From: Escherichia coli O127:H6 str. E2348/69
Lineage (GTDB): Bacteria > Pseudomonadota > Gammaproteobacteria > Enterobacterales > Enterobacteriaceae
DNA: 64,000 nt
Reading direction: 5' to 3' (one strand)
NCBI RefSeq assembly: GCF_000026545.1
Contig: NC_011601.1
Both the position numbers and the translations under genes were made by a program. Positions 7,677 through 9,566 of the stretch are shown here, piece by piece; the first letter of the stretch is position 1, and each line of letters starts with the position of its first letter. The notes under the pieces are model-generated. The model made no database searches, had not been told where the DNA came from, and was given only the letters and a program-made list of their open reading frames with translations.

Positions 7677-8462
7677 TGCTCTCCCTGATTGCTTTAATGA
7701 AAAAGTCATATAAGTTGCCATGAACAATGTTTATTCATCCTAGCGATGACAAGATTCACCATTATTCTTTATGGGTATAACTGTCGGCGCAGAATCCTAC
7801 CTTTTATCATGTAACGATGCAAAATAATCCCGCTATAAATATGTGGGGATAAAGGCGGCTGGCGACAAAATAGCAACCTGATGAAATTATGACGGAAACA
7901 ACCACTATTGGTTTGATGATACCTGACTGCAGTCCTACTCTTGCGCCACTCGTTCGTCGCTCTGAACGCCAGTGGTTGCAGTGGATACTGGCGTGGTTGG
8001 CTCAATGAATAGTGAGGGGCTAGCACATGATGGGTTTCAGAGGTAATACGCCAAATACCAATATAATTGATGATTAAATGAGCCAATTGCCGACGTTACA
8101 TAAAAGGCTAAAAAATGTAAGAGGCATGTAGGGTGATAAACGCGCTATTGCCCAACAGGAGTTTCTGAAATTAGTCCTGTTCCATGGGCATTACAACTCT
8201 TAGGACATTACTTCAATATAATTAATGTGTATATCATTCTCGATATTAATTTATGAAGTGAATTTAATATATTCCGAATTCTTAATTTACATTACTAATG
8301 TATGGGGCATAACGTTAAGAAATCATAACGGGAAACGTTGATAACTTGCTTTGATTTCATTTTCTATGAAGATGATGCCATCAATGCTGCATAAAGTGGG
8401 TATATTGAACATCAAAGAGCGTTTGTTTTTATCTGAAAGATATTATTTCCAGGAGAAAGGAT

Positions 8463-8993
8463 ATGTCATTAAGGAGAATGACATCTGGTGAATTAACATT
8501 AGCCAGATCGATTTTTGAGAATACAATTGATTATAACAAGGTATGGATCCACAATGAAAAATATTTGCCCGGTCAAGGGGAAAGAACAGCGATGACCCCA
8601 AACGGGGAAATGTATTATCCTGATGCTGTTTATAGTTCAGATTTTTCATCGCAATCAATGCCTGGTGAGCGTGAAACAGTAGCAGGTGCTTCTCACTTGT
8701 TTATTCATGAAATGATGCATATTGGGCAATATCAGAAAGGGTATGCAGTTAAGTTGCGTGGTTTATTTTCCTGGGCGGCAAATTATCATTACGATCTTAA
8801 CTTACAGTCAATTGCTTCTTATTCCATGGAGCAACAAGCATCTATAGTAGCTGATTATTGGCTATTGATTAACTACGGACTGGTAGCTGATTTGGCAAAT
8901 GTTAACTATGTAGGTGATACAACTGAATCAGTGAACACGCTATCGGAAAAATACAAAAAGGTGCTTAATTTATTTCCTGCGGGCGTCATATGA
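8463..8993 (+). CDS. hypothetical HExxH protein (putative zinc metallopeptidase-like; possibly DUF4157-type)
   Basis: 176 aa ORF with AGGAGAAAGG RBS; motif HEMMH at residues 82-86 (nt 8706..8720) in context ASHLFIHEMMHIGQYQ; no signal peptide; low-GC locus; stop overlaps next ATG (ATGA). Confidence 0.6.
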   Translation: MSLRRMTSGELTLARSIFENTIDYNKVWIHNEKYLPGQGERTAMTPNGEMYYPDAVYSSDFSSQSMPGERETVAGASHLFIHEMMHIGQYQKGYAVKLRGLFSWAANYHYDLNLQSIASYSMEQQASIVADYWLLINYGLVADLANVNYVGDTTESVNTLSEKYKKVLNLFPAGVI

Positions 8994-9345
8994 AGAGATT
9001 TTTTTATTGTTCTTTTTATCGGGATGCACTGTTGGTGATTACGTTCGCCCATTGTTGCCCGGTAATATATCTTTACAAGACGGACGGGTTTGTTCAAAAC
9101 CAGACGATGGGAGTATGATTTCAAATTATATTTTATATGAAGGTAAATATGGCAATGTAGTAAAACTGAAAAAATTGACTGGTCAGTTCGAACCCGTATG
9201 TATTGACATAAGTGAGCTATCTTCAGATGTTACTTATATCGGAAAATATATGCTCTCTTCCGGAAGTAAAAAAGAATACTATGGTTTTAGCATAATTAGA
9301 ACAGGGGTGCGTATTTTAAGACTTGATGATAATCATATTAAATAA
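8990..9345 (+). CDS. putative lipoprotein (candidate partner/immunity protein); ATG and body are in different frames across a T7 tract
   Basis: ATG 8990 overlaps the upstream stop; the ORF-track frame starts at TTG 9007 as MFFLSGCTVGDY.... One extra T in the T run 8999..9005 would give MKRFFLLFFLSGC, a classic lipoprotein signal with lipobox LSGC. Confidence 0.45.
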
Positions 9346-9566
9346 AAAATTAAATAATTTCATTGGTTTTATTAATGTACTTGAGATGAATATTTTCACC
9401 AGATTAGCATGACGGTGCATTCTTCAAGGCATATATGGTTAATAGTATCTTCAGTAGCATGCATAAGTATTGAGATTTTTTATGCCAGCTACGAATATAT
9501 TGCATATCTCATTCTCTGTAAGATTTCTTATTAGCACTTAGCCATTTCTAGTTAAAAGGATTAATT

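Follow-up and report, generated by a model that had tools for sequence, protein, structure and literature searches.

A probable relic of a type VI secretion metallopeptidase effector and its lipoprotein immunity gene beside the vgrG/rhs remnant of Escherichia coli E2348/69

[quoted passage not shown] In the characterised members, activity in the periplasm requires the HExxH site and leads to septal blebbing and lysis. VgrG2b of Pseudomonas aeruginosa, a spike protein of 1019 residues to which the peptidase domain is fused, and its immunity protein PA0261 have been characterised, and the structure of the catalytic domain is available (PDB 6H56; PMC6899460). PA0261 is a soluble periplasmic protein with conserved cysteines that form a DsbA-dependent disulfide, and it is encoded directly downstream of the T6SS-linked effector gene. 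Stand-alone effectors with lipoprotein immunity proteins were reported from Enterobacteriaceae (PMC6899460). According to the account of Ringel et al. (2017) as cited in PMC6899460, Tpe1-Tpi1 of Acinetobacter baylyi (ACIAD0053/0054) consists of a stand-alone cargo metallopeptidase of the same family and an immunity protein encoded downstream; Tpi1 is not a lipoprotein but has a transmembrane helix that anchors it in the inner membrane, and Tpe1 is toxic to E. coli solely at low osmolarity. In Salmonella enterica subsp. arizonae, SARI_02727 and SARI_02726, which are encoded in SPI-20, form a pair of a stand-alone peptidase of about 180-190 residues and an overlapping lipoprotein immunity protein of the NF045617 type. 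In experiments on this pair the peptidase proved toxic in the periplasm, its immunity protein gave protection, and a contribution to competition was demonstrated (PMC12992299, 2026).

The window analysed here is a 64,000-nucleotide stretch of the chromosome of the EPEC strain E2348/69 (NC_011601.1). Downstream of ansP it contains what is very probably the broken leftover of a module of this kind, a T6SS zinc-peptidase toxin with its protective lipoprotein. The initial annotation, made from the sequence alone, had placed a coupled HExxH metallopeptidase and lipoprotein in a low-GC islet at the position of yncG and yncH in K-12, on the same strand as the downstream vgrG and rhs remnants, the Rhs tip and its immunity gene. 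Base composition, position and strand agree with our results: the GC content is 0.30-0.39 over positions ~8000-9500 compared with ~0.50 in the flanks, both ync genes occupy the locus in K-12, and the genes named lie on the plus strand. A remnant of yncG, the homologue of which in strain AST85 is annotated as glutathione S-transferase (120 nt), marks the site where the island replaced yncG-yncH. The comparison of the ansP-rhs junction across E. coli established the synteny directly and revealed both intact and decayed islands. The intact island lies between ansP and pptA and contains, in this order, the effector gene, the immunity gene, vgrG, eagR (a DcrB-like chaperone), a gene for a PAAR-Rhs toxin, rhsI and symE; in such strains the pair stands first in an auxiliary T6SS island. 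The features of the E2348/69 copy are listed in Table 1. RefSeq labels the genes of the module 'hypothetical protein' or, misleadingly, 'type IV secretion protein Rhs'. Literature on the RefSeq protein accessions or E. coli-specific descriptions were not found, and a phrase query combining E2348/69, T6SS and vgrG had no match.

Table 1. Features of the islet and the adjoining island in E2348/69 (positions in the window)
Feature	Position	Strand	Evidence
yncG (glutathione S-transferase) internal remnant	7890..8008	+	Translation resembles K-12 YncG residues ~64-100
Scar of 139-bp deletion, ~11-bp flanking repeat	8310..8320	.	blastn of the window against loci L025, L003, L004 and L026
Shine-Dalgarno sequence GGAG	8452..8455	+	Direct sequence reading
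Predicted effector ORF, 176 aa	8463..8993	+	PDB phmmer, AF2, Foldseek, invariant residues
Tpi/PA0261-family lipoprotein immunity pseudogene	8990..9345	+	ORF frames, T7 vs T8 comparison, NF045617, hhalign
vgrG 5' fragment, ~313 codons	9567..10505	+	TIGR03361 E=3.6e-65, residues 31-315; PGAP pseudogene
Frameshifted 3' part of the rhs core, joined to the vgrG fragment	10508..11507	+	RHS_core and Rhs_assc_core matches; blastn against intact islands
Rhs C-terminal toxin tip (frameshifted ~11600) and putative immunity gene	11507..12206	+	ORFs; position after Rhs core
Of the preceding entry, the putative immunity gene, 92 aa	11928..12206	+	ORFs; position after tip
Truncated symE-like gene, 66 aa, right end of island	12236..12436	-	NF010128 SymE E=1.3e-8, profile positions 42-88 of 113; PGAP

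The product of the first gene can be assigned with high confidence, on the basis of sequence and a structural model, to the stand-alone (cargo-type) branch of the Tpe/VgrG2b C-terminal family of thermolysin-like zinc metallopeptidases, and would thus be a T6SS effector. The predicted ORF with its single HEMMH motif, in the context ASHLFIHEMMHIGQYQ, and the ribosome-binding site 7 nt before the ATG were as first described. A phmmer search of the PDB yielded 6H56_A, the VgrG2b effector domain, as the sole match (E=2.9e-18, query residues 4-138), with the HEMxH and EQQ motifs aligned. The AF2 model of the protein (pLDDT 90.4) likewise recovered the metallopeptidase fold, since in a Foldseek comparison with the PDB chains A and B of 6H56 were the only significant matches (E=2.5e-9, TM 0.65, probability 1.00; ~33% identity in the alignment). 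Homology and fold are thereby established, and the HExxH metallopeptidase of the initial annotation is upheld by both searches. Among 36 homologues the columns of H82, E83, H86, E123, Q125 and D131 are invariant. H82 (8706-8708), E83, H86 (8718-8720) and the distal ligand E123 (8829-8831) correspond to H935, E936, H939 and E983 of VgrG2b, which form a gluzincin site consisting of HExxH and a distal Glu; all four zinc and catalytic residues are retained in the sequence of the E2348/69 protein. Beside the motif, G88 (8724-8726) replaces a residue that is otherwise conserved as W or Y, and this W88G exchange, found only in E2348/69 among 14 E. coli loci, may be a lesion adjoining the active site. 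A signal peptide is absent.

Pfam searched at E<=10, NCBIfam and PADLOC gave no match to the effector, so its recognition rests on the sequence and fold searches of the PDB. With PADLOC empty, a reading as a defence system was dropped. Members of the Tpe family are often annotated as DUF4157 (Wood et al. 2019, PMC6899460), and a DUF4157-type fold had also been suggested for the E. coli protein. PF13699, the Pfam entry for DUF4157 that is now named 'eCIS core domain', covers a similar short region of about 80 residues around HExxH; it matches relatives below threshold only and the E. coli effector not at all, which leaves this part of the initial annotation with weak support. The ORF is not a chance one, since the full islet is present in 222 of 5426 complete E. 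coli genomes, the family comprises 3284 representative clusters, and pairwise dN/dS among the E. coli effector alleles is 0.10-0.44 (0.10-0.26 for the more divergent pairs), values below 1 that were measured between lineages and say little on the terminal branch of E2348/69.

[quoted passage not shown] The proposed stop/ATG overlap (ATGA) exists at 8990-8993. However, the frame of this ATG stops after 42 codons, and the lipoprotein body (9007..9345) is in the -1 frame relative to it, because the T-run at 8999-9005 contains seven residues in E2348/69 and eight in the intact relatives. The repaired product begins MKRFFLLFFLSGC and comprises 118 residues, with a signal peptide and a lipobox with Thr at +2; intact forms in E. 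coli have 118-120 residues. The NCBIfam profile NF045617, 'putative T6SS immunity periplasmic lipoprotein', matches the product with E=5.1e-8 and 33 bits, under its cut-off of 43 bits, and hhalign with DUF7480-type partners gave a probability of 93.5% (E=2.3e-7). The repaired lipoprotein has no match in Pfam, and DUF7480 is not detected in this 118-residue form, which in this respect differs from the longer SARI_02726 (154 residues, DUF7480 match). All 16 partners compared, from five genera, share C35 and C71, the lipobox Cys and G16 are likewise invariant, and every locus inspected has a DUF7480-type or related small gene directly downstream of the effector homologue. The toxin-immunity reading of the pair is supported by these results together with the homology of the effector and the T6SS-linked relatives; what the initial annotation missed were the frameshift in the lipoprotein gene and the lack of a detectable T6SS sheath gene in the strain.

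The linkage to T6SS genes, which had been raised as an orphan module beside the vgrG/rhs remnant, is supported by the neighbourhood of the pair and of its relatives. In E2348/69 the fragments of vgrG and rhs adjoin the pair downstream, and in other E. coli strains vgrG, eagR and PAAR-Rhs are intact. Effector homologues occur in the main T6SS cluster of Citrobacter, in an hcp-Tlde1 islet of Atlantibacter and in a degraded T6SS of Enterobacter, whereas others lie away from any T6SS gene, in a tandem array of Erwinia and in a prophage of Kosakonia. The position in E. coli, at the head of a vgrG-eagR-rhs island at ansP, differs from that of the Salmonella pair inside the main T6SS cluster. The E. 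coli pair resembles VgrG2b/PA0261 in its catalytic site and in the small envelope-targeted immunity gene with conserved cysteines, but its peptidase is free, its partner is a lipoprotein, and the E2348/69 copy resides, with a broken immunity gene, in a strain that is negative for T6SS. An origin from a broken 'evolved VgrG' was rejected, as the search for a remnant of vgrG on the upstream side of the E. coli effector found none; the truncated vgrG upstream of the Citrobacter homologue is an N-terminal fragment and not a fusion partner. By analogy with the characterised homologues, the E. coli pair would consist of a peptidase that is toxic in the periplasm and depends on a T6SS for its delivery, with VgrG or Hcp as the candidate carrier, and an immunity protein that protects by binding.

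With chimeric megablast queries, tssC of neither T6SS-1 nor T6SS-2 of LF82 had a match in any of the three E2348/69 assemblies; the search covers these two classes at megablast sensitivity, and a divergent T6SS would escape it. In the genome paper of LF82, the ORFs of the two T6SS islands shared with E2348/69 number 0 of 29 and 0 of 22. In a sample of 60 genomes, a broken immunity gene coincides with the absence of tssC in 16 of 16 listed records. The break was verified from the sequence in nine of them and deduced in seven from 'lipoprotein' as the PGAP product label, which denoted a frameshifted pseudogene in every locus inspected. In both records that were verified to have an intact immunity gene, tssC was matched.

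The damage extends beyond the immunity gene. A 4,908-bp deletion, the junction of which was mapped against strain SCU-111, truncates vgrG and fuses it to rhs; the rhs fragment terminates at the PxxxxDPxGL core boundary and is annotated by PGAP as a pseudogene (8396-9408 of the locus, 10495-11507 of the window). The Rhs toxin tip has no NCBIfam match and no significant Pfam match. Upstream of the effector gene, 139 bp are deleted relative to most islet-bearing E. coli. The promoter that had been proposed for the islet was not recovered: the scan found 10 sigma-70-like sites in the region, compared with 8.3 expected, and those on the plus strand lie only at or after 8493, none upstream of 8463. 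In the relatives a TTGATA-16-TAAAAT site (822-849 of locus L025), the best plus-strand promoter-like sequence upstream of the effector, falls inside the segment deleted from E2348/69, and the deletion likely took away the promoter. The full-length effector ORF with its good Shine-Dalgarno sequence makes expression in E2348/69 possible. The signs of decay are thus the frameshift in the immunity gene, the probable loss of the promoter, the W88G exchange, the vgrG-rhs fusion and the frameshift in the Rhs tip. As a T6SS sheath gene is not detectable in the genome either, the module is most likely without function in E2348/69.

Certain observations could be taken to suggest that parts of the module are retained for a purpose. 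All 14 E. coli loci examined, T6SS-negative ones included, retain a full-length effector ORF, while the immunity gene has suffered three separate breaks, two of them in or beside homopolymer runs; relatives are found beside the lysis cassette of a prophage and in tandem arrays free of T6SS genes. On these grounds the peptidase may have been kept for a T6SS-independent purpose, or its partner may be a phase-variable gene switched by a homopolymer, a combined proposal that we consider improbable. According to the second version the pair is still functional in E2348/69 and the T7 allele is rescued by transcriptional slippage or by a -1 ribosomal slip on U7, in which the P-site tRNA-Phe would move from UUU to the overlapping UUU and yield exactly MKRFFLLFFLSGC and a product identical to the intact protein; attackers with the same toxin would then meet a low-level or phase-variable immunity in this strain. 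The location of the frameshift in a homopolymer and the occurrence of the T7 allele in at least four strains fit this scenario, as does an alternative CTG-start ORF called by PGAP in Z1323HEC0477, which keeps the hydrophobic core and the lipobox. Yet a CTG start without a Shine-Dalgarno sequence is improbable, and seven T in a row are few for slippage to be efficient. The two other frameshifts, at codons ~62 and ~69 in other lineages, resemble neutral decay rather than a programmed switch, every T7 genome checked lacks tssC, and the adjoining vgrG, rhs and upstream region are damaged as well, so that rescue by slippage, its product and the residual immunity are all quite improbable.

Action independent of a T6SS, by release through lysis or from a prophage or on the envelope of the producer itself, would explain the survival of the ORF amid broken neighbours. 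The Kosakonia pair directly follows a holin/lysozyme/Rz cassette of a prophage, four tandem pairs in Erwinia have no T6SS gene nearby, and homologues were noted in the largely T6SS-free Sphingomonadaceae (Wood et al. 2019, PMC6899460). Arguing against it, a peptidase that lacks a signal peptide cannot reach the periplasm unaided, and for the characterised members activity is confined to the periplasm and depends on a T6SS. The effector has not escaped damage either, as is evident from W88G in E2348/69 and from the change of the start ATG to ATA in AST85, and by our own arithmetic three random frameshifts would all fall into the immunity gene (357 nt, compared with 531 nt for the effector) with a probability of ~0.065, which is not significant; two of the three lie in or beside the homopolymer runs mentioned above. 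We regard this proposal as very unlikely. Matches in phage records numbered 3 of 50,697, all weak, and a phage-borne module was rejected; the 61 plasmid matches are mostly to large replicons of Pantoea and Cronobacter. Least probable, and in our view hardly credible, is that the protein is a DUF4157-type cargo of an extracellular contractile injection system (eCIS) and not a T6SS effector. PF13699 was matched by 17 of the 36 family members at E<=0.1, the best with E=3.1e-3, but by none at E<=0.001, and the neighbours are vgrG, eagR, PAAR-Rhs, hcp, tssB and tssC, with no eCIS genes nearby; membership in DUF4157/eCIS was therefore rejected.

The relic of a T6SS effector-immunity module thus remains the preferred reading. 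The pair of E2348/69 is a degenerate member of the Tpe/Tpi (VgrG2b C-terminal/PA0261) family, and the 'uncharacterised two-gene system' of the initial annotation does not hold for a family of which a crystal structure is available, the immunity proteins have been named as a family of their own, and the function has been validated by experiment, also for a stand-alone enterobacterial pair. With a known family and a relic copy, the new biology is slight. For annotation, the genes can be renamed as a T6SS metallopeptidase effector and a lipoprotein immunity pseudogene, and the locus provides a worked example of an auxiliary T6SS island that decays once the core machine is absent. The intact E. 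coli alleles, such as those of SCU-111 and the mouse commensal MP1, would be a tractable enterobacterial model in which to look for the substrate of these peptidases.

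The 176-aa protein, which has a single HEMMH motif in the context quoted in the initial annotation, has no match in Pfam, NCBIfam or PADLOC. A sequence search of the PDB yielded one match, the effector domain of P. aeruginosa VgrG2b (6H56; E=2.9e-18, residues 4-138), in which LFIHEMMHIGQYQ of the effector pairs with LFIHEMTHVWQHQ of VgrG2b and SMEQQASIV with NIEQQGDIV. The AlphaFold2 model, predicted confidently with 36 homologues as input (mean pLDDT 90.4), had 6H56 chains A and B as its only significant Foldseek matches in the PDB (E=2.5e-9, probability 1.00, TM 0.65). Residues H82, E83, H86 and E123, invariant in the family alignment, correspond to the zinc and catalytic residues H935, E936, H939 and E983 of VgrG2b. 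The DUF4157-type fold suggested earlier was a fair lead, since such proteins are "frequently annotated as DUF4157", but membership does not hold: the 176-aa protein has no PF13699 match, and the 17 of 36 relatives that do match it all stay below threshold. When 1.84 billion representative proteins were searched with a profile, 3284 effector-family clusters were found at E<=0.001; they include free proteins (about 170-240 aa), others of 300-450 aa and some of VgrG size (about 1000-1280 aa), the longer ones with the effector domain at or near the C-terminus. This modular, polymorphic-effector pattern agrees with the published description of the family. The RefSeq label "type IV secretion protein Rhs" on many of the effectors is a misnomer.

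The system is not uncharacterised, as had been supposed, since the family is already known from experiments. The structure 6H56 was solved by Wood et al. (2019, PMC6899460), who found that periplasmic toxicity of the VgrG2b domain depends on HExxH and is accompanied by septal blebbing and lysis, and that PA0261, the cognate immunity protein, binds the domain and is DsbA-dependent. In many Enterobacteriaceae they described a stand-alone peptidase, a putative cargo effector, with a predicted lipoprotein encoded after it; the name Tpe-Tpi is their proposal, modelled on A. baylyi Tpe1-Tpi1 (Wood et al. 2019, PMC6899460). A 2026 paper (PMC12992299) validated the stand-alone S. arizonae pair SARI_02727/SARI_02726: the peptidase was toxic in the periplasm, the lipoprotein gave partial rescue, and there were phenotypes in competition. 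This lipoprotein matches DUF7480 in Pfam as well as the NCBIfam model for T6SS immunity lipoproteins.

Over the region of interest the window matches EPEC O127:H6 strain E2348/69 with 100% identity. The low GC content of the islet was borne out, as were the ribosome-binding site (GGAG, 7 nt upstream of the ATG) and the presence of yncG and yncH at the same position in K-12. The effector's own promoter was not: a sigma-70 consensus scan found no site on the + strand upstream of 8463, and the best + strand promoter-like site, TTGATA-16-TAAAAT, lies within the additional 139 bp of most other carriers.

Features of the module in the window and lesions of the E2348/69 copy (reference for lesions: SCU-111, 98.4% identical to E2348/69)
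Feature	Position	Strand	Remark
yncG internal fragment	about 7890-8008		retained
Low-GC islet	about 8000-9500		GC 0.30-0.39 vs about 0.50 on both flanks
139 bp missing upstream of effector	scar about 8310-8320		vs SCU-111
Effector ORF	8463..8993	+	176 aa
Effector V87I			common to A25, DCE7 and E2348/69
Effector W88G			0/13 other E. coli loci; W or Y in 35/35 aligned homologues, W in VgrG2b
Effector stop/ATG overlap (ATGA)	8990-8993		
T7 for T8 in lipoprotein gene	8999-9005	+	vs SCU-111
Lipoprotein-like ORF	9007..9345		called from TTG
vgrG 5' fragment joined to rhs 3' core, then frameshifted Rhs C-terminal tip, putative Rhs immunity gene and truncated symE	9567-12436		
4,908-bp deletion			vgrG codon about 313 joined to 3' part of rhs; vs SCU-111
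Rhs tip frameshift in E2348/69			vs SCU-111
Putative Rhs immunity gene	11928..12206		92 aa; GC about 0.25
Another short orphan rhs-like fragment ('...YVYDAADLLLEI...')	12443-12657		symE-pptA gap; PGAP label: partial hypothetical protein

The coupled lipoprotein gene of the initial annotation stood only in part. The overlap is present, but the ATG frame that starts in it stops after 42 codons and the lipoprotein-like ORF lies in a different frame. The window has seven T in a run that has eight in close relatives, and with eight the gene encodes MKRFFLLFFLSGC..., 118 aa; in E2348/69 it is therefore a frameshifted pseudogene. When repaired, the lipoprotein has no Pfam match and scores 33 bits (E=5.1e-8) against NCBIfam NF045617, "putative T6SS immunity periplasmic lipoprotein", below the curated cut-off of 43 bits. 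Its alignment with the products of the genes 3' of effector homologues in Citrobacter, Atlantibacter, Enterobacter, Kosakonia and Erwinia showed that the lipobox Cys, the Gly three positions after it and two more Cys are invariant, and profile-profile comparison relates the short E. coli type to the DUF7480 type (probability 93.5%, E=2.3e-7). The co-occurrence asked about in the initial annotation was found at every related locus inspected, with such a gene directly 3' of the effector homologue. In RefSeq the T7 allele of E2348/69 is a 112-aa TTG-start "hypothetical protein"; for the same allele in E. coli Z1323HEC0477 (locus L025, 1526-1894) PGAP calls a 122-aa CDS from a CTG within the effector 3' end (LRASYEEIFLLFFLSGC...), which masks the frameshift.

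The full islet occurs in 222 of 5426 complete E. coli genomes, and 564 more have only its first about 220 bases. In the intact islands of APEC O2-211, ETEC1721, SCU-111, SCU-171, MSHS 133 and TK3887 the order from ansP to pptA is effector (531 nt), lipoprotein (357-363 nt, with a 4-nt overlap), vgrG, DcrB-like EagR chaperone, PAAR-Rhs, Rhs immunity and symE, and strain d1-58 retains this order with a frameshifted rhs. The ansP-pptA island is an auxiliary T6SS island. In Citrobacter farmeri the block lies within the main T6SS cluster, 3' of an N-terminal vgrG fragment, and in Atlantibacter the pair adjoins hcp-Tlde1. The Enterobacter hormaechei pair is intact and closes a degraded tssB-tssC-tssK'-clpV' cluster in which tssK is shortened and ClpV survives as an 89-aa fragment (loci L006-L009, 6817-11013); with 362 blocks of the collection indexed for this effector protein, in that species too the pair seems to persist longer than the machinery. 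Among the more divergent E. coli allele pairs, the effector has a dN/dS of 0.10-0.26 and the lipoprotein one of about 0.25, and non-synonymous change is several times faster in the lipoprotein. Fast non-synonymous evolution is usual for immunity proteins.

Several neighbouring and related loci deserve mention. The Rhs C-terminal tip of the window has no family in Pfam or NCBIfam and beyond 11459 differs from that of the closest intact relative; a truncated symE lies downstream of the Rhs immunity gene on the opposite strand. Between mnaT and pqqU (window about 2250-2600; locus L001, 260-483) E2348/69 is without curA and retains mcbR (GntR family) as a 168-nt fragment, a deletion shared with SCU-111, both genes being intact in other strains. 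In Kosakonia (loci L013 and L014, 6686-8958) an effector homologue and a DUF7480 lipoprotein gene directly follow a prophage holin/lysozyme/Rz lysis cassette, close to an RNase-A-like toxin/CdiI pair, and appear to be accessory, moron-like prophage cargo. Erwinia rhapontici (locus L017, 5778-9793) has four tandem effector/DUF7480 pairs, one effector truncated, inserted among oligopeptide ABC transporter operon genes, with no T6SS gene within 8 kb. E. coli AST85 is another copy in independent decay, with an ATA effector start (locus L026, 1013-1015), the motif HETMH, a third independent lipoprotein frameshift and an internal stop in vgrG.

Two chimeric megablast queries, each joining E2348/69-specific sequence to a tssC stretch (700-900 nt) of one of the two LF82 T6SS clusters, matched each of the three E2348/69 assemblies at one place only, and therefore neither LF82 tssC is present in them. 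A published table, in which E2348/69 shares 0/29 and 0/22 T6SS-island ORFs, agrees. Among the best 60 islet-bearing records tssC was matched in 29, and immunity state and tssC split cleanly: SCU-111 and SCU-171, the two verified as intact, had one match each, and the 16 with a broken immunity gene had none. Nine of the 16 were verified by sequence; the other seven were assigned by their PGAP product label, "lipoprotein", a label that denoted a frameshifted pseudogene in every locus inspected. Disruption of the immunity gene has occurred on at least three separate occasions, at the T-run, at codon about 62 and at codon about 69.

The association of a toxin-immunity module with T6SS had been sensed correctly: the homology, the conserved active site, the pairing and the link to T6SS have all been demonstrated, and the module is a real but degenerate member of a known, experimentally characterised toxin-immunity family. 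Slippage might rescue the T7 allele, which we regard as improbable. There is likewise little probability that the preserved peptidase has a role independent of T6SS.

By analogy with the characterised homologues, strains that have both a T6SS and the island in intact form most likely use the pair as follows: the signal-less peptidase would be loaded onto the T6SS and injected into the periplasm of a neighbouring cell, where zinc-dependent proteolysis of envelope targets, for VgrG2b proposed to be lipoproteins, would block division and cause lysis. Sister cells would be safe through binding of the toxin by the outer-membrane lipoprotein. The E2348/69 copy of the module is most probably inactive, a relic in a T6SS-negative lineage.
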